Assembly: GCA_029856145.1 (NCBI GenBank)
Contig: JAHQWK010000001.1
Coordinates: 224,001-288,000, forward strand
Source: Promethearchaeia archaeon
Lineage (GTDB): Archaea > Asgardarchaeota > Lokiarchaeia > Sigyniarchaeales > SOKP01
DNA: 64,000 nucleotides
Direction of reading: 5' to 3'
Positions 15,622-29,884 of this stretch are shown piece by piece. Positions within the stretch are counted from its first letter, which is position 1; the number at the start of each line of letters is the position of its first letter. The notes beneath the pieces are model-generated. The model was given only the letters and a program-made list of their open reading frames with translations, did not search any database and had not been told where the DNA came from. Position numbers and translations under genes: made by a program.

Positions 15622-16341
15622 TTATATTAATTTAGTTAAAAATTCTTCTACTTCTTGTTCATTACACATATGAAACTTTTTATCTTCGCCTTTAATATAA
15701 GCCATTCTAATATTGTCTTTTGTTGCTTCCTCATCAATTGATTCCTTTAATGTATTTAAAGTTAGATTAATCAATTCATCAAAAGTCATATTTTCTTTAT
15801 AATTATTAATAAGGTGTTCCCTAGCTGGTGCCTCTCCTGTCCCAATAGCATATGCTTTGAATGAACGATAAATTCCACTTGGAGATGTTGTGAAAATCTG
15901 TGTTCCGCTCGCATCGATTCCGATGAAAAAAAGCGCACATCCCCATGGACGTACCCCACCAAATTGACAATATTGTTGCTTTAAATCAGCAAGTGCTTTA
16001 GCTAACATATTTAGGCGAACAGGTTCATCATATGTTAATCTAAATGATTGAGCTTGAACTCTTGCATAATTTATAAGTGCTCGAGCATCTGCATGTAATC
16101 CTGAGATCGCCACACCAATATGTTCATCTACTTGAAATAGTTTATCTATTGAATTAGCATCCATCAAAACCGAAGCAATCTTGATCTGTGCTGCTAAACA
16201 TACATCTTCTTTTGTTTTAACAGCTACAGCGAGTGTGCCTCTTCTAACTGCTTCTAATGCATATTCTACCTGGAATAAGCGCCCCTCTGGGCTGAAGACA
16301 GTTAACGCACGATCGTAAGCCCTACCTCCTGCTCCAAACAT
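15622..16341 (-). CDS. psmA: Proteasome subunit alpha
   Basis: YDRALTVFSPEGRLFQVEYALEAVRRG signature; SGLHADAR; GGVRPWG. Confidence 0.96.
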   Translation of the reverse strand: MFGAGGRAYDRALTVFSPEGRLFQVEYALEAVRRGTLAVAVKTKEDVCLAAQIKIASVLMDANSIDKLFQVDEHIGVAISGLHADARALINYARVQAQSFRLTYDEPVRLNMLAKALADLKQQYCQFGGVRPWGCALFFIGIDASGTQIFTTSPSGIYRSFKAYAIGTGEAPAREHLINNYKENMTFDELINLTLNTLKESIDEEATKDNIRMAYIKGEDKKFHMCNEQEVEEFLTKLI

Positions 16342-16423
16342 TTAATTTACCTACTTATATTTGATTTTATACTTTTAAAATATACAACTAAATTTTAATT
16401 TATGGTTTATAACAAATAAAAAG

Positions 16424-16972
16424 CTATATCTTTTTAGTCTTCTCTAAAATAGCAAGGGTTAAATCTTTAAAGACAGGCTCGATTTCAATATTATTTTTAG
16501 CACTTGTTTCAATGTAGGTTATTGCATTTAGTTCTTCTTTTAGTGCTTCACCATCTCCCGTACCAACTTCCCTTTGTCCCTGTTCTGCTAAATCTATTTT
16601 ATTTCCTACTAAAATGGATGGCTTACTATCACCAATTACTTTTTCTACTTCACTTTTCCAATTTAAGATATTTTGAAACGAACTCCTTCGTGTAAGATCA
16701 AACGTGTATATGATCGCGCTGCTTCCCCTGTAAAAGGGTGGACGTACAAAGCTGAAATGTTTCTGTCCTGCAAGATCCCAGAGCTGGAGCTTAATAAGGT
16801 AGTTTGGATACTCATGTAGGTCCACCTGCTTAGTAGAAAAGTTAGATCCAATTGTCATGATATAATTTTCTTTAAACGAATTCTCACAATAGCGGAGGAC
16901 CATAGATGTTTTCCCTACACCGCCATCGCCTACAACACATATCTTATAAATGAAGCTTTTTGTTGCAGTCAT
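16424..16972 (-). CDS. Rab-like small GTPase (Ras superfamily)
   Basis: G1 GDGGVGKTS, G2 TIG, G3 WDLAGQ, G4 NKID, G5 ETSAK; no C-terminal prenylation cysteines. Confidence 0.93.
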   Translation of the reverse strand: MTATKSFIYKICVVGDGGVGKTSMVLRYCENSFKENYIMTIGSNFSTKQVDLHEYPNYLIKLQLWDLAGQKHFSFVRPPFYRGSSAIIYTFDLTRRSSFQNILNWKSEVEKVIGDSKPSILVGNKIDLAEQGQREVGTGDGEALKEELNAITYIETSAKNNIEIEPVFKDLTLAILEKTKKI

Positions 16973-22116: not shown

Positions 22117-22450
22117 TTTAATTCATTGTTTTTTTTTTAATTTTAAAATTACAAGATTGATATTATACGTTACTTATTATAAAGTTTGATTTTACATTTC
22201 CTTCATATTACATAATTCTGAACTAAAACATAAAGACATTTTCGTCGGGAATAAAGTATGGTTATAACCTTATTCTTTTCATTTTTACTTTTAATCACCC
22301 CTCTCCGTCTTCATGAAACAATTTTACTTTTAAAAGAATGTTTCTTCTTGTAAAAAGAAATGATATTACTTACCTATGGAGAAATTACATATATTTCAGA
22401 AAATTGTCGGCGTATCTTCGTTTTATTTTGAAGAATCGTTACTTCATGTG

Positions 22451-23200
22451 ATGAATTTGAATCAAACAGGATTCACATTATATAAAAGGAACAATAATAC
22501 TTCCCTCATTTCAAGTGGGGATGGCACGTTAGATGAGTTACTTTCTGGGGGCTTTCATCAAGATTTAGTGTATTTGCTCTATGGAGATAAGAAGCTAACG
22601 ACCAATATTTTATTAACTACGGCTGTTATTGCCCAAAAAGCTTTTAACAATGGAGGGCTTGGAGAAGGTATTAGAGTTGCCTTTATCGATGGAAATAATC
22701 GGTTTAATCCTTATAATGTAAGTAAGTTTGCGGTTTCCCAGAATTTGTCCCCTCGGAAAGTGTTAGAAAACATCATGATCTCGAGAGCGTTTACATGGGA
22801 TCAAATGGTCGAGATTTTGGAGAATAGACTTTCCGCACTTGAAGATGTGAAAGTAGTGTTAATCTCTGGGATTACAACTCTGTTTGAAGGCTATGAGAAA
22901 CAGACTTTCGAAGATCTACTAAGAACTATAGACGGAATTAAACAAATACTCTGGAAAACAAATCCCCTCATTATTATAACGGCACCTTTACACGAACATT
23001 CTCTTTTTAGACCGAAGGGTGGAAAAATTCTTTCTCATTTTGGAAATGTGTTAGTGATGATAAATGATGATGATCGGTATGTAGAATATGTTCTCGTCCA
23101 ACACCCATATCTTCCAGAGAATCGGTTGTTAAAGTGGAAATCTCGTACACCCAAGAAAAAAGTTCCTTTAAAGAATACAACATTAGATTATTGGTTTTAA
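22451..23200 (+). CDS. RadA/Rad51-like protein with inactivated P-loop (PolB2-associated type)
   Basis: ISSGDGTLDELLSGGF, AFIDGNNRFNPY, VLENIMISRAFTWDQ; Walker A replaced by YGDKKLTT; C-terminal NTTLDYWF; start may be 22376-22451. Confidence 0.85.
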   Translation: MNLNQTGFTLYKRNNNTSLISSGDGTLDELLSGGFHQDLVYLLYGDKKLTTNILLTTAVIAQKAFNNGGLGEGIRVAFIDGNNRFNPYNVSKFAVSQNLSPRKVLENIMISRAFTWDQMVEILENRLSALEDVKVVLISGITTLFEGYEKQTFEDLLRTIDGIKQILWKTNPLIIITAPLHEHSLFRPKGGKILSHFGNVLVMINDDDRYVEYVLVQHPYLPENRLLKWKSRTPKKKVPLKNTTLDYWF

Positions 23201-23205
23201 ATATA

Positions 23206-23628
23206 TCACCAAAAGGCTTTTTCAAATTTATCGATAGTGTCCTGTAAACTATCTTTAATATGCTTTTCAAAATCAGTAAAAACACTTATATCATTATCCC
23301 AGTTATCAAGCATCTCTTTTGGATATAGATTAAAGAATTTATTTACAATACTCTTTATTTCTTCTTTAACTTTTTTCTCCTTAGTCTTTTTAGAGGAATT
23401 TACAATAAAAGATAATCCATGCTGTTTTGTGATAATATATTTTTTATCTTTTAGCTCAAAATTAGATAAACCTCCTCTTTCTAATTCTTCTGCTAATAGG
23501 TTTAAAGCGGACAGTAATGCACCAATTAACTGGTCATCAACGTTTCTATCAAAAACACGATGATATAAGACAGCGCCAGCATCATTTAATATCCAAATAT
23601 CTTGTATTACCTTTTCCACAGAAATCAC
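23206..23628 (-). CDS. Longin-like domain protein (Asgard eukaryotic-signature type)
   Basis: IWILNDAGAVLYHR (two strands), LIGALLSALNLLAEEL helix, three strands, IVNKFFNLY helix, FTDFEKHI. Confidence 0.7.
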   Translation of the reverse strand: MISVEKVIQDIWILNDAGAVLYHRVFDRNVDDQLIGALLSALNLLAEELERGGLSNFELKDKKYIITKQHGLSFIVNSSKKTKEKKVKEEIKSIVNKFFNLYPKEMLDNWDNDISVFTDFEKHIKDSLQDTIDKFEKAFW

Positions 23629-23718
23629 AGATTATTACATTCAAATTAACTATTAAGTTAATTAAAAAAAAATATATATAAAATATTTAATGTTTAGTTT
23701 TTAAAAAACTAGTATTTA

Positions 23719-24450
23719 TTATTCACTAGATCTCGGTCTAATATATCCATAATATGCTCCAAAAATTCCAGCAATGGCAGAAACCCACGCTAAGTAATAG
23801 AACACTGTAAATCCAGGGCCTCCTAAAAATACAAATACTCGATCTATTGCAAAATTGAGAAAGATCAACATAAAGCTAAATGACATAATTGCTAATGATA
23901 AAAATGCTTGTTTATATGCTTTCTCCTCTACAGCTCGATAAGATTCTATTGCTCTTCGTAGAAAAGGGGCATACACCATAACCATATAAATAAATACAAT
24001 CAAGAACGCAAAAACATCTAAAAAATCATTATTATTTTCATAGATTAATAAAACATAGACACAACTAAATAATCCATAAATTGATACGATAATTTTTTGA
24101 ACTGTGTTATATCCCTTTTCAAAAACATTCACCTTTAATATGTAAGATAAGAAAATAGCAATTGTTACAAGGAATTCGCTTAACCTAAAATCTTCTACTA
24201 TGTTATACAAATATGCATTTATAGAACCATCTTGTACCACACTTAGCTGTGTCACTACAAAAACTTTTGATAACCAAGAAAAAACAATTGCTAAAAAGTA
24301 GCCGAGAAAAATTAATAAAAGTAAACGAGTTAAGTTATGACGTTTAATGAAATATTTCTTTAATATCAGCACAAGCAAAACTGCAGCGAAGATTAATATA
24401 AAGGATTCAAAGATCATACCAATAAAATTTAAATATATATTTTCAACCAT
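23719..24450 (-). CDS. Membrane protein with about 7 TM helices, unknown function
   Basis: Seven hydrophobic segments in 243 aa with short basic loops. Confidence 0.75.
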   Translation of the reverse strand: MVENIYLNFIGMIFESFILIFAAVLLVLILKKYFIKRHNLTRLLLLIFLGYFLAIVFSWLSKVFVVTQLSVVQDGSINAYLYNIVEDFRLSEFLVTIAIFLSYILKVNVFEKGYNTVQKIIVSIYGLFSCVYVLLIYENNNDFLDVFAFLIVFIYMVMVYAPFLRRAIESYRAVEEKAYKQAFLSLAIMSFSFMLIFLNFAIDRVFVFLGGPGFTVFYYLAWVSAIAGIFGAYYGYIRPRSSE

Positions 24451-24522
24451 GATATATTATTATGAAAATCTGAACATTTAAAATTTTATTTTAAGAAATA
24501 AATATTAAATAACTGAAAAAAA

Positions 24523-24627
24523 GTCCAAGACTTATATCTTTCAGATAATAGGTTATAAAAGTGGAAACCTTGTATATCCAAGAAAAAAGCTCCTTTAAAA
24601 AATACGACATTAGATTATTGGGTTTAG
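24523..24627 (+). repeat. Degenerate direct copy of the last 105 bp of the radA-like gene (23096-23200)
   Basis: Ungapped alignment with 17 mismatches in 105 bp; reads VQDLYLSDNRL*KWKPCISKKKAPLKNTTLDYWV*. Confidence 0.93.
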
Positions 24628-24793
24628 TTTTCATTTCAACTGAATTTGTTTTCCGCGATTCATATAATTCAAGAAAACGTGAATTTATCTATATCATACT
24701 AAATAAATATATAAATGTGAATAGCTTTTAAATAATGTGAAATAATAGTCACTGTCATCTAATAAAAAAATAATTCGTATGATGTGAAGAATT

Positions 24794-25309
24794 TTGGACA
24801 TTAAAATTTTTAAAAAGACATTTAAATTTATCTGTGATGAATGTGGAGAATTTACACATACAAAATCGGAATATTGCGAAAATTGTGGGGCACAGGCTTT
24901 AAGGAATGCAACAAATGAGGATTATACGAGATATGAAAAGGAAAAAATAAGTGAAGTTAAAGAACTTCGGATAGAATCTGAGAAAGTTGAGGAAACTAGG
25001 CACGTTGCTGAGAGAGCTGAGAAGGTAGCTGAGAAAGCTAGGATGGTTGCTGAGAGAGCTGAGATAAAAGCTGAGAAGGTAGCTGAGAATGTAATTAAGA
25101 AAGCTAAGAATGCTGGGAAGGAAACTGAGAAAGCTGAAAAGATAGCTAAGAAGGTAACTGAGAAAGCTGAGAAGGCTGCTGAGAAAGCTGAGAAGGAAGT
25201 TAAGAAGGCTGTTGAGAAAGCTAAGGAGAAAGCAGAGAAAACTAAGAAGGCTGCTGAGAAAGCTAAGGAGAAAGCAGAAAAAACTAAGAAGGTGGCTGAG
25301 AAAACTTAG
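24794..25309 (+). CDS. Zn-ribbon protein with A/E/K low-complexity helical tail
   Basis: CDEC..CENC followed by about 100 aa of KAEK/AEKA repeats; TTG start. Confidence 0.75.
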   Translation: MDIKIFKKTFKFICDECGEFTHTKSEYCENCGAQALRNATNEDYTRYEKEKISEVKELRIESEKVEETRHVAERAEKVAEKARMVAERAEIKAEKVAENVIKKAKNAGKETEKAEKIAKKVTEKAEKAAEKAEKEVKKAVEKAKEKAEKTKKAAEKAKEKAEKTKKVAEKT

Positions 25310-25415: not shown

Positions 25416-25826
25416 TCAATCTTTTTTTTTATACATATGGGGGTCATTTTCTTCTAAAATTAATTTGTCGCCTCCATACTGAATCTTTTTAGCTTGATAA
25501 TTAAGTTTAGTTTTCTCATCACAGATTTTATTCCATTCTTCTAATCCTAACATTTGGGTCATAACAGAATTATACACTTTGGAATTATGAGGCTTGAAAA
25601 TTTCAAAATTTCCAATAGGTTATAACATTTCACAAGGAAAATCTTCACATTCATAACAAAGGTCATGTCCTTTATTTGTAACACATACGTAAATTTTGCA
25701 CATTGGGTACTTGAGGATTTGACCTTCTAATTCTCGACACCCTTTACATCCGAAAAAATTTACGCCAGGGCACCTTTTACAATAAATTCCACAGGGACCA
25801 TGCCATTTTTTTAAGTCTTCAGTCAT
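25416..25826 (-). pseudogene. DUF3795-like Cys-rich protein with one in-frame TAA
   Basis: PCGIYCKRC..CKGC..CKIYVC..CYECEDFPCEML*PIGNFEIFKPHNSKVYNS..GLEEWNKI continues in frame to TGA at 25416. Confidence 0.8.
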
Positions 25827-25917
25827 AAATTAGACATTAAGCATGGTTTTATTGTATTAAAATAATAAGTTTCAGTGTTATTTAATATTTTTTTTTTATT
25901 TTTAGGTAGTATTTAAA

Positions 25918-26058
25918 GTGAGTTATTTTGTATTTCCTAAGGGAGATGTAAAAAAATGTGAATTGTGTGAAGGTAATGGTATATTATATGTTTGGAGAAG
26001 TGATTAGGAAGATTTTGATTTGATAATATGTCCAGAATGTAATGAAAAAGAAGATTGA
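25918..26058 (+). pseudogene. Small CxxCxGxG zinc-finger remnant with in-frame TAG
   Basis: DVKKCELCEGNGILYVWRSD*EDFDLIICPECNEKED*; TAG at 26005-26007. Confidence 0.55.
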
Positions 26059-26072
26059 TCCATTAAATCTTA

Positions 26073-27041
26073 TCATTTTATGCCAAAGAGTTTAGCTGCA
26101 TTACTATAAAGCCATTTTTCTTTTACATCTTCTTTTAAAGGCAAATTTATAACTTCATCAGCCAGCTGTCTTATTGACATTCTCATAAAAAGCCAGGTGG
26201 AGCCAAATAGAATTTTATCTTGCAAGACTGAATTTCCATAATGGATGAGAGGTTCCCAACCTGTTCCTTTCATTCCAATGTATTTAGGTAGGTAGGAAGC
26301 GATATCAATATAAATATTAGGATTACGCCAAGCAACAGCAACCATTTCATTAACCCAAGGCCATCCTCCATGTCCCGCAATTATTTTTAATTCAGGAAAG
26401 TCTTGAGCAACAACATCAAGATAAATTGGTCGTTCTACTTCCATTGTATTAGTAGAATAATTTATAGATATATGAAACCATATAGGAATATCAAGTTCTA
26501 CACATGTAGAATAAATGGGATACATTTTTTTATTAGTTGGTGCCATTTGAAACATAAATGGTCTAATTGCAATCCCTCTGAGACCCAACTCATATGATCT
26601 TCTTATTTCTTGTATAGCTTTCTTTTTTTTTAATGGATCAATCCCAGCAAATCCAATAAATTTATCAGGAAAATGTCTCACTATTTGAGCATAATAATCA
26701 TTTGGAAGTCCAGCAATACCACTTGGTGTTTCTTCATCTAGATTGAAAATAACTGCCTTTTCTACACCCATTTTGTCAAGTTGAACAACAAACTTTTCAA
26801 TAGACATAGTTAACTTTCTTATTTTAGGTAAAAATGGTTTAATTGCTTCCTTAAGTTCGGAGGTACTTAGTGTTGATTTCATTTCATATAGCTCTTCTGG
26901 TGTAATACCTAAAAGAGGTGCTACTCTTGGACCAAAAACATCCTTAAGGTATCGTGCCATTTGAGGGGGTAATGAAACTAAAAGATCCACAAAGACTTCT
27001 TCAGTAGGCACATAGCAAAGAGAATCGATTATCTTATACAC
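26073..27041 (-). CDS. Amidohydrolase family 2 protein
   Basis: FIGFAGIDP, IPIWFH, FPELKIIAGHGGWPW, NIYIDIA, KILFGS, NAAKLFG. Confidence 0.88.
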   Translation of the reverse strand: MYKIIDSLCYVPTEEVFVDLLVSLPPQMARYLKDVFGPRVAPLLGITPEELYEMKSTLSTSELKEAIKPFLPKIRKLTMSIEKFVVQLDKMGVEKAVIFNLDEETPSGIAGLPNDYYAQIVRHFPDKFIGFAGIDPLKKKKAIQEIRRSYELGLRGIAIRPFMFQMAPTNKKMYPIYSTCVELDIPIWFHISINYSTNTMEVERPIYLDVVAQDFPELKIIAGHGGWPWVNEMVAVAWRNPNIYIDIASYLPKYIGMKGTGWEPLIHYGNSVLQDKILFGSTWLFMRMSIRQLADEVINLPLKEDVKEKWLYSNAAKLFGIK

Positions 27042-27196
27042 ATCTAATCATCTCATAAATCCTATATAGTAATATTTTCGGAACTATTATTATTTTCCTT
27101 ATTAAAAAAAATCAGAAAATTTGTATTGCATTTTTGTTTTAATTTGCCGAAAAACTTTCTTTCTTGGATTTTTAATTAATATCAAAAGTGTAAGAA

Positions 27197-27469
27197 ATGG
27201 GAAGAACTGTACCCTCTTTTAGACCTGCGCTTGAACATGAAATTGAAAGCTGGAAGGACTTCAAAAGAGCATTACGTCCTGACGAGCAGAAAATATTTGA
27301 CAAGTTGATGAATTTCGCTCGAATACACGCGGATGCGGGTAGCATGAGCGCACGTCCAATGTTGTCGGAAGTATTGTTTATTTCCTTTGCAGTTGAACAA
27401 GAAAAAAAAATCGAGATGCTAGAAGAGAAAGTAAAAGAATTAGAAGAAATGATAAAAGGAATAGATTAG
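27197..27469 (+). CDS. Small helical PolB2-associated protein (arCOG07300-like)
   Basis: MGRTVPSFR..W..FKRALR..Q..FD.L...AR.HA pattern; stop codon 3 bp before the polB2 start. Confidence 0.8.
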   Translation: MGRTVPSFRPALEHEIESWKDFKRALRPDEQKIFDKLMNFARIHADAGSMSARPMLSEVLFISFAVEQEKKIEMLEEKVKELEEMIKGID

Positions 27470-27472
27470 AAA

Positions 27473-29884
27473 TTGGACTTTCAAGAACAATTTGATGGTT
27501 GGCTTTTGGATGTCTCCACTTATAGCAATGGAGTCATTCTTTGGGTCAAAACAGTAAAAGAACAAAAAGTTGTAAAAGTTTTTCATGACTTCTGCCCCGA
27601 ATTTTTCGCTGTGCCTAAAAGACATGCTGGCAAAGACTTCAAAAGACTAAAACAGATTCTCAAATCACACCACAATATAGAGAATGTAAGAATCTGTGAA
27701 AAATATGTGAAGCTGGAGGATCATGAAAAAACAAAAATATTTGGAGTTTCTGTAGTAAAACCTTCAGTTTTTAAGAAGACAATTAAAGAAATCGATGAAA
27801 TTGCCCTTTTTACTTTGTATAACACCGATCTTCCAATCTCTCAGATGTATTTCTATGTGAATGACTTATTTCCAATGTCTCTTTGCAGTTTCAGGGTCAA
27901 ACTTGAAAATAAGAGAAGAGCTGGAGCACACGCAATGCGTTTGATCTCCTTAGAATTAAATGATGACAACGAAGAACTGTTTTACGATTTACCTCCTCTA
28001 AAAGCTGTGTGGTTGGATATTAAAGTACAGCAGCGTGGGGTGAGATCATATTACAATGATCCTCTGCTATATGCAGAAGTCAGTATTGTTGAAAAAGATG
28101 AGAGGGCCAACATTCCAAGGGCAGATGGACAGAGAAAAAGAAAGATCCTAATTGATAAAGCTGATGAAGCTGAAACTATCAAGACAATTAGTAAAGTGAT
28201 TGAGAGATTAGATCCTGACATTATATTAACACATGGAGGAGATGAATTTGTATTTCCTTACTTAGCGGCTCGAGCATCAGTGAATCGAGTATCAAAGGAT
28301 TTATATTTTTCTCGCACTAGAACACCACTTAGAAATTGCATCTTTAATCTATCAGGAAATTCAGATCATTACATGTCATACGGAATAATAATGCGACGTT
28401 CTAAAACACAAGTTTACTTCACAGGACGCTTTCATTTAGACACTACTACTTATGGGAGTTTGCACTTTAGTGAGGGAAATATACCAGGTGTCATTGAAGT
28501 TGCGAGAATCTCTCGAGTGCCTATGCAAAGATTATGTAGAGTAACTATAGGAGGTGCCCTTCAATCTATTCAATACTATAATGCATATAAACTAGATCAT
28601 CTTATCCCACCTTTCAAGAAGAGTCCAGAAGATTTTCGAAGTGGTATGGACTTAATCATAAATGATCGAGGAGGTCATATATTTGAACCACTAATCGGAG
28701 TCTTTGATCAAGTTATAGAGTTAGATTTCTCTTCAATGTATCCGTCTTTAATGGCTAATTTTAACATTTCTTCAGAAACAATTAATTGTAAATGTTGTAA
28801 AGATGATGGAACTGGAATTAGGGTACCAGGGGGTGGAGGTTTTCATATTTGCTCCAAAAGACAAGGAATAATTTCGAAATCGATAAGCTTACCGTTGGGA
28901 AAGCGTCTCCAGTATAAAGAATATAATAAGACTCATGATGATCTTAGGTATAAATTCACTGATATTGCTCTAAAATGGGTACTTGTGGTCAGCTTTGGCT
29001 ATCTAGGATTCAAAAATGCTCGTTTTGGTAAAATTGAGGCTCATCAAACAGTTTGTGCTTTTGCTCGTGAGTTTCTGTTGAGATCCGCTGAGATTGCTAA
29101 AAATCATGGCTGTAAAGTCGTTCATGGAATTGTTGATTCAATGTGGCTTCAAGATACAGAAGGAAGAACTTCTGAAGAATTTGAAAAAGTAACGAGAATA
29201 GTTGCTGAAAAAATAACTGAACATACAAAAATTCCAATGAACTGGGATGGAAGATTTAATATAATCGTTTTCTTACCTTCTCGAGCAGAACCAGATATTC
29301 CCGCTCTCAGTCACTATTGGGGGATTAAAAATAACGGTGAAGTTAAGGTGAGAGGCATTGAAGTAAGACGTAGAGATATACCCAAAATAGTAAAAAATGC
29401 TCAATATGCCTTTATAGATATATTTCAGGGTGCAAAAACCATTGAGGAGTTCATGGAAAGAATTCCCGAAGCAAAGAAAAAACTTTATGAATATGTTGAA
29501 AGAACATACTCCGGAAAGCTGTCAAGAGAAGAACTTACAATTCGTCAAAGAATATCTCGCAAACCTTCTCAATATAAGGTTAATTCATACCAAGCAGTTG
29601 CAGCTAGACAATTAGAACGGTCTGGAGTCATAGCCTCACCTGGCAAGAATGTAAGATATATTATCCTTAATGCTGATGCAGATCCGAATTATCCTGAAAA
29701 AAAGGTGATCCTTTCAGATTTATATGATGAAAAGAAACATGAGTATGATAGAAAAAAGTATGTTGAACTATTGAAAAGAGCCTTTGAGAACATATTTCCT
29801 TTTGAATTCCCGGAGCTTGAGGTACTGCTTACATCAGACTATAATAAAAAATCTCTTCAAAAAGATCTGTCATGCTTTATTTGA
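27473..29884 (+). CDS. polB2: Family B DNA polymerase, PolB2/Dpo2 group, proofreading-deficient
   Basis: Motif A ELDFSSMYPS, B ALKWVLVVSFGYLG, C HGIVDS, KVRGIEVRRRD; ExoII reads HGGDEFVFPYL; TTG start. Confidence 0.92.
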   Translation: MDFQEQFDGWLLDVSTYSNGVILWVKTVKEQKVVKVFHDFCPEFFAVPKRHAGKDFKRLKQILKSHHNIENVRICEKYVKLEDHEKTKIFGVSVVKPSVFKKTIKEIDEIALFTLYNTDLPISQMYFYVNDLFPMSLCSFRVKLENKRRAGAHAMRLISLELNDDNEELFYDLPPLKAVWLDIKVQQRGVRSYYNDPLLYAEVSIVEKDERANIPRADGQRKRKILIDKADEAETIKTISKVIERLDPDIILTHGGDEFVFPYLAARASVNRVSKDLYFSRTRTPLRNCIFNLSGNSDHYMSYGIIMRRSKTQVYFTGRFHLDTTTYGSLHFSEGNIPGVIEVARISRVPMQRLCRVTIGGALQSIQYYNAYKLDHLIPPFKKSPEDFRSGMDLIINDRGGHIFEPLIGVFDQVIELDFSSMYPSLMANFNISSETINCKCCKDDGTGIRVPGGGGFHICSKRQGIISKSISLPLGKRLQYKEYNKTHDDLRYKFTDIALKWVLVVSFGYLGFKNARFGKIEAHQTVCAFAREFLLRSAEIAKNHGCKVVHGIVDSMWLQDTEGRTSEEFEKVTRIVAEKITEHTKIPMNWDGRFNIIVFLPSRAEPDIPALSHYWGIKNNGEVKVRGIEVRRRDIPKIVKNAQYAFIDIFQGAKTIEEFMERIPEAKKKLYEYVERTYSGKLSREELTIRQRISRKPSQYKVNSYQAVAARQLERSGVIASPGKNVRYIILNADADPNYPEKKVILSDLYDEKKHEYDRKKYVELLKRAFENIFPFEFPELEVLLTSDYNKKSLQKDLSCFI

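Follow-up and report, generated by a model that had tools for sequence, protein, structure and literature searches.

The 105-bp repeat that brackets a longin gene and a seven-helix membrane (7TM) gene in the window, the 64,000-nucleotide stretch of Lokiarchaeia DNA analysed here, is probably the scar of two alleles of one chromosomal slot that were joined by homology-facilitated illegitimate recombination (HFIR) without an integrase. The scar is ordinary and its cargo is the more notable of the two. Gene linkage and a structural model indicate that the cargo is most likely a family-wide functional pair made up of a membrane sensor and a soluble longin partner.

The repeat and its surroundings

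The two copies of the repeat align without gaps and are identical at 88 of 105 positions, with C-to-T changes forming six of the 17 differences. This match has a BLASTN E-value of 2e-27 against the whole 3.55-Mb genome, where the next best match elsewhere reaches only 0.006. The upstream copy ends with TAA at 23200 and the downstream copy with TAG at 24627, and codon 12 of the downstream copy is an in-frame TAA. Only the longin gene (23206-23619/23628) and the 7TM gene are found between the copies, both on the minus strand (Table 1). An assembly artefact was rejected because eleven contigs of other assemblies span positions 22300-24900 with the same arrangement and 0-2 mismatches each.

An earlier note on this DNA had described the gapless repeat, its internal TAA and C-to-T changes, the two opposite-strand genes between the copies and the lack of an integrase, and all of these were confirmed. 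No tyrosine or serine recombinase (PF00589, PF07508, PF00239) was found in the 97%-complete genome. The note also had both copies ending exactly at the stop codon; they do end in TAA and TAG, but downstream the homology to cassette-free relatives continues through a 166-bp spacer into the next gene. The search that it proposed for the same repeat or cassette elsewhere revealed no other copy of either in the 3.55-Mb genome.

Table 1. Features of the iRadA-PolB2 region of the window (positions are those of the window).
Feature	Position	Strand	Remarks
iRadA, RadA homolog without catalytic activity, in the PolB2 mutasome operon	22376..23200	+	Pfam Rad51 E 1e-15
Live repeat copy	23096..23200	+	final 34 codons of iRadA plus its stop
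Stand-alone longin, 137 aa (140 from GTG 23628)	23206..23619	-	Pfam Fuz_longin_1 E 2.6e-5, just under cut-off
Longin C-terminal helix, residues 124-137, ending KFEKAFW	23209..23250	-	sole longin segment in the predicted interface
Seven-helix membrane protein (7TM), 243 aa, GPCR/rhodopsin-like bundle	23719..24450	-	neither a retinal lysine nor an output domain
7TM upstream region and eroded junction to dead copy	24451..24522	.	matches sister species G006, G058, L181
Dead repeat copy: iRadA 3' end with internal TAA, no start	24523..24627	+	ancestry in common with G041 dead copy
Spacer, located behind the working iRadA in congeners without the cassette	24628..24793	+	G014 E 4e-11, G009 E 5e-10, G011 E 7e-9, G001 E 4e-8
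Zinc-ribbon and Lys/Glu/Ala coiled-coil gene	24794..25309	+	genus-specific slot occupant
Split DUF3795 gene and amidohydrolase	25416..27041	-	older slot occupants, also in sister genus
PPB2 (MGRT start, DUF8156) and PolB2	27197..29884	+	right-hand conserved flank

A variable slot in the PolB2 mutasome operon

Homologs carry the label Promethearchaeota/Lokiarchaeia. The radA-like gene corresponds to iRadA, a member of the PolB2 mutasome operon, which has been described as iRadA-PPB2-PolB2 with a dead ATPase and an MGRT start of PPB2 (PMC11791011, PMC4104785). All three genes are found co-oriented and in the usual order in one neighbourhood of the window. The window iRadA lacks the ATPase active site, with no Walker A in its sequence, and PPB2 begins with MGRT. 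The C-terminus of iRadA forms a PCNA-binding-like motif (NTTLDYWF), and the duplicated 34 codons include this clamp-binding-like tail. The true start of iRadA is probably the ATG at 22451, giving a protein of 249 aa, and positions 22376-22450 are probably an upstream regulatory stretch, because these first 25 codons are conserved as DNA among orthologs yet often contain stops. A segment of this stretch with AGAAAATT was observed to recur upstream of PPB2 at 27112-27151 (repeat D20) and is a candidate damage-response box common to both upstream regions.

In other families of the order iRadA is contiguous with PPB2 (a 90-aa MGRT protein) and PolB2, and splitting of the operon has been called rare (PMC11791011, PMC4104785). 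In contrast, the host genus has 0.1-8 kb of variable genes between iRadA and PPB2, and the slot behind iRadA is hypervariable. The sister genus has the order iRadA-DUF3795-(amidohydrolase)-PPB2. The zinc-ribbon gene of the window is closest to those of the congeners G014, G041 and G011 and not to those of the sister species. We found no description of the slot or of the longin and 7TM pair in the part of the literature that was covered.

Several further features of the slot and its flanks were noticed. The coiled coil of the zinc-ribbon protein varies from 98 to 177 aa in congeners and the gene is duplicated in several genomes. The DUF3795 gene (25416-25826) is split into parts of 68 aa and about 50 aa in the window and in all conspecific contigs and measures 137-139 aa in congeners; it is a fixed pseudogene. 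In L232 a tiny Lys/Ala/Pro-rich basic gene with histone H1-like repeats occupies the slot about 170-270 bp past the iRadA stop, and behind it come a DUF3795 tail and a further remnant of an iRadA tail. Within PolB2, the tract 28500-29300 is 93-96% identical to G050 and G051 compared with about 85% elsewhere, which marks it as a recent recombined tract. At 15622-16972, 6-7 kb upstream, there is a proteasome alpha-like gene together with a Rab-like GTPase. A scan for sigma-70 promoters, with a model unsuited to archaea, gave chance levels only.

Origin of the downstream copy

The dead copy, the 166-bp spacer and the zinc-ribbon gene together are what follows the working iRadA in three cassette-free congeners (G014, G011 and G001). 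The earlier note had suggested looking for empty sites in relatives, and these three alleles have exactly the junction that is seen downstream of the cassette. At four sites the dead copy has the allele of the working genes of the sister species and the live gene is the divergent one, whereas most of the other differences are decay of the dead copy, five of them in common with the dead copy of G041.

A counterpart of the window's dead copy is found in G041. The two are sisters in the best tree, and the G041 junction between cassette and dead copy retains about six more bases of iRadA than the window's. The G041 dead copy is identical to the window dead copy at 92/105 positions compared with 73/105 for G041's own iRadA, and a tree with the G041 dead copy and its own gene as sisters was rejected (AU p = 0.001), so that a duplication from its own iRadA is impossible in G041. 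In the best tree the dead copies nest inside one iRadA subclade, where identity is 84-89/105 compared with 65-78 for most others. For the window's dead copy, with 105 bp and little power, a sister position to the live gene (AU p = 0.16) and a position basal to the genus (p = 0.18) were both retained. G016, which belongs to the clade of the window genome, retains a shorter iRadA remnant of about 45 bp, and the event is therefore older than the species.

As judged from these trees, duplication within a chromosome is a possible source of the window's dead copy, which nests in the iRadA 3'-end clade of the live gene. A tandem duplication of iRadA and its downstream genes could have been followed by deletions that left iRadA and the cassette in the first unit and the iRadA tail and zinc-ribbon gene in the second; deletions are very frequent in the slot and two zinc-ribbon genes occur in several genomes. 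We nevertheless regard this history as unlikely. It needs the same deletion junction as in G014, G011 and G001, it is rejected for G041, and it is contradicted by 14 common alleles in a further congener, G004. In addition, no congener examined has a second full-length iRadA at the site, the paralog that the earlier note had named as pointing to tandem duplication and decay.

Proposed joining of two alleles in tandem

Tree tests in G041 (AU p = 0.001) and common alleles in G004 show, from sequence comparison, that two different alleles were joined in tandem in these congeners. G004 has an independent 305-bp dead copy which has 14 alleles and a cassette-deletion junction in common with G045. The sequence on its left is 98-99% like that of G066, and the sequence on its right is 97-98% like that of G045. 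We tried to polarise this event by genome-wide identity; the outcome was a mosaic (90-97% to G045 and G066) which gave no direction, and the sequences provide only a leaning. Other tandem chimeras with different break points were observed in G009 (33 bp), G016 (about 45 bp), L232 (about 60 bp), G012 and G001. The left ends of the cases are located at about -305, -111, -60, -45 and -33, where erosion accounts for part of the variation. The window junction is eroded beyond any reading of microhomology, and none is evident in G041 or G004, for which the donor is absent. Most of the genomes compared are MAGs with 5-9% contamination, but every junction is internal to a contig. Separate contigs of G006, G041 and G042 contain orphan iRadA fragments, which show greater divergence, have unrelated surroundings and resemble decayed paralogs.

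The gene trees of the slot are discordant with the rpoB tree, in agreement with the earlier suggestion that such cargo moves by recombination. As an example, the window longin cannot be grouped with those of the sister species G006 and G058 (AU p = 2e-35).

We propose that recombination in the conserved flanks exchanges the contents of the slot between congeners, as the patchy content and discordant gene trees show. Most exchanges would be clean replacements or microhomology deletions. In an occasional event one end would be homologous and the other illegitimate, which would place two alleles in tandem, and a junction inside the iRadA of the second allele would leave an orphan 3' end, as shown for G004 and G041 and inferred for the window. 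Here the cassette allele (iRadA-longin-7TM) would have been joined to a cassette-free allele (iRadA tail-spacer-zinc-ribbon) in an ancestor common with G016, after which the orphan tail would have decayed and lost part of its left end by erosion. Such a joining would not require an integrase.

A precedent is found in the T6SS effector-immunity arrays of V. cholerae, for which HFIR with sequential displacement was proposed (PMC5361080), and in Rhs orphan 3' ends; the paper also cites HFIR in Acinetobacter, Streptococcus and Pseudomonas. HFIR fits the present case because of the two-allele joins, the varied break points and the lack of an integrase, as in the Vibrio arrays (PMC5361080). In both systems a conserved upstream gene acts as the anchor, new and old alleles stand in tandem with the orphan 3' end moved downstream, and clean homologous replacement is commoner than additive events. 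The present system differs in being archaeal, in having a gene of a DNA-repair operon as anchor and a signalling-type pair rather than toxin and immunity genes as cargo, and in that retention of the orphan brings no evident benefit. The scar records a known kind of event. It also serves as a worked example of turnover in patchy Asgard signature genes, by allele swapping and deletion among congeners in a slot flanked by core genes and with no mobile element.

As to which side came in, the chance that the cassette was re-acquired from a congener is, overall, slightly below even. That the downstream block arrived beside a resident cassette has a smaller but appreciable probability. The cassette-free alleles may also be pop-outs through the repeat instead of parents.

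Elements that integrate into gene ends, such as prophages, ICEs and SSV-type archaeal elements, restore the gene and displace its 3' end. The window has the same architecture, with a live gene upstream and a displaced 3' end past the cargo, as would be expected if a site-specific element had inserted with the iRadA 3' end serving as attB and had later lost its integrase. This origin is scarcely credible given that no integrase was found in the 97%-complete genome, that the break points vary (305, about 111, 60, 45 and 33 bp) with no fixed att core, and that repeat and cassette are both single in the genome. Moreover, the cargo is chromosomal in relatives, contains no mobility gene and is host-like in GC content, which does not mark it as foreign; the two repeat copies are different alleles; and no excised or empty allele was found among the conspecific assemblies, which had been gathered via cassette or iRadA proteins.

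Distribution and age of the longin and 7TM pair

The pair is present in the slot in 26 of the 49 congeners with a readable site and absent in the other 23. Carriers were observed in every major clade of the rpoB-region tree, on which a single gain requires 17 losses and unweighted parsimony requires 15 changes. Cassette remnants were found in eight of the 23 non-carriers (six by profile search and two by eye), including the two closest iRadA relatives, and many empty sites are deletions. The closest relative, G010, was considered as a pre-insertion site and rejected, as its iRadA end is fused to the 7TM upstream region via a short ATTAT match, which is a deletion.

Outside the slot, six other genera have the two genes side by side, in 30 or more genomes; several of these loci also have DinB and a gene of the inositol monophosphatase family nearby. 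The presence of carriers in all major clades together with these occurrences elsewhere indicates a pair native to the family that moved into the slot early in the host genus. Linkage is not strict, as there are 7TM genes and also tail-bearing longins that occur without a partner. The scar marks at most a re-acquisition from congener to congener.

The sister genus has neither gene at this site in 27 of 30 loci, a 7TM gene alone in a few genomes and a longin in none; one arrival must therefore have occurred. The repeat could in principle be its attL/attR-like scar, dating to the base of the genus and since lost in most lineages, and both the retained basal position of the dead copies (AU p = 0.18) and the erosion of remnants seen in G016 would agree with this. 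However, we consider it very improbable. In the best tree the dead copies nest inside one subclade rather than at the base, and the gene that follows the dead copy is the genus-specific zinc-ribbon gene rather than DUF3795, the neighbour in the outgroup. Furthermore, the downstream iRadA tail is found in only three of the 26 carriers, and the 23 without any trace of it include all of the early-branching ones. The claim of the earlier note that the scar records delivery of a foreign cassette is therefore not supported, given also that empty sites are often deletions and that the pair is old in the slot and native to the family. What survives of that reading is a scar of integrase-free recombination that matches the cassette-free junctions of G014, G011 and G001, and not a first delivery.

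In another genus (L149, L150 and L151, from G108, G110 and G123) the same slot contains a g1-type 7TM gene without a longin. These 7TM copies nest beside that of G041 (AU p = 0.02), and on this phylogenetic ground they are regarded as a cross-genus transfer at the slot. The same three genomes have tail-bearing longins elsewhere, beside a second 7TM subfamily. Both this subfamily and the pair in other genera often adjoin a DinB (Y-family) polymerase (L157, L158, L159, L160, L297, L298). The link of the pair to error-prone polymerases, DinB there and the PolB2 operon here, may be due to chance.

The 7TM protein

The 7TM protein was modelled with a pLDDT of 91 as seven long helices. Its structural matches include the GPCR fold at Z 13-16, with rhodopsins and AdipoR tied. 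For instance, TRHR was matched at Z 13.7 (rmsd 4.3, 223 aligned), although the arrangement of the helices can by itself bring a helical bundle to Z 13, and structural identity to GPCRs is 5-16%. Foldseek gave no match for the model at E <= 0.001, and Pfam and NCBIfam gave none for the protein. Among the Atlas families HisKA_7TM comes nearest, at 0.84, and provides a weak lead. The modelled protein therefore has a seven-helix bundle of GPCR topology but no sequence homology to any GPCR class. It also differs from microbial rhodopsins in missing the retinal-binding lysine of helix 7, since no lysine was found in helix 216-237 in an alignment of 30 homologs. Loops 1, 3 and 5 and the C terminus are rich in Lys and Arg and, by the positive-inside rule, are located inside, with the N terminus out.

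A second 7TM subfamily, with 20% identity to the window 7TM (hhalign 96.6%), was examined at its 30 best loci, and in 12 of them it is arranged head to head with a tail-bearing longin of the same type. This, together with the adjacency of the pair in the six other genera, supports a functional pair.

The longin and its C-terminal tail

The model of the small protein has a beta-beta-alpha-beta-beta-beta-alpha-alpha topology, and longin structures top its match list at Z 12.4-10 (AP2 mu: Z 12.4, rmsd 3.4, 120 aligned). On the basis of this model it is a true longin. Longins serve as platforms in eukaryotic AP mu/sigma, SRX, Mon1-Ccz1 and TRAPP. Asgard 7TM proteins and longins have each been listed as a signature family (10.64898/2026.10.28.762692).

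The KFEKAFW tail is nearly invariant in the homologs, and no tail of this type was found in any other longin-like protein of the window genome, including 7TM-longin fusions. A restriction of the tail to longins beside a 7TM gene was rejected because tail-bearing longins also stand alone at a glycerol-phosphate dehydrogenase locus; tail and 7TM adjacency are thus linked but not one to one.

Predicted complex of the 7TM protein and the longin

The complex of the 7TM protein and the longin was modelled with a score of 0.69, compared with 0.00 for the best control. Among 80 solved complexes 58 attain this mark, whereas two of 110 mismatched pairs do so; these counts apply approximately, since own-built alignments were used. 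At least 95% of the contacts are common to the runs, and the pLDDT of the partner is at least 66. On the longin side the predicted interface involves residues 124-137 only, which face residues 32-44, 108-112, 166-182 and 235-241 of the 7TM protein. These belong to ICL1, the end of TM3, TM5/TM6 and the end of TM7 and form the cytoplasmic face. Interface columns are more conserved than average (0.79 against 0.69 and 0.88 against 0.75). The longin is therefore predicted to bind the cytoplasmic face of the 7TM protein via its C-terminal helix.

The alpha5 helix of Galpha docks onto the cytoplasmic face of GPCRs. In the model the arrangement is similar, with a C-terminal amphipathic helix of the partner on the cytoplasmic face of a seven-helix protein, and the high complex score may reflect likeness to solved GPCR-Galpha structures. 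Unlike in the GPCR-Galpha complex, the partner is a longin with a true longin fold and not a GTPase, and the link to a GTPase is only proposed. We tentatively suggest that the two proteins could be an Asgard receptor-transducer pair, in which a GPCR-fold protein would bind a longin helix in the pocket used by Galpha alpha5 and would couple an outside signal to small-GTPase control, and which would be a dispensable module gained and lost by integrase-free recombination in the PolB2 operon. If true, the modelled contact would identify the membrane protein with which an Asgard longin works and would provide a testable two-protein parallel or precursor to GPCR-Galpha coupling. In the literature covered we found no paper on the pair or on docking of the tail.

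Longin paralogs and fusions show further variation. Close paralogs in the host genus (G000 contig C3:206264-206650; L300, L301, L033) have partly or wholly lost the tail, several of them at the glycerol-phosphate dehydrogenase locus, and the same locus keeps the tail in other genera. The longin of 7TM-longin fusions (G000 contig C9:309815-310945; L152:3099-5381) has no AFW tail, and the 7TM parts of such fusions have no detectable homology to the window 7TM family. In G150, two 7TM-longin fusions adjoin a Rab-like GTPase and a homolog of the window 7TM protein.
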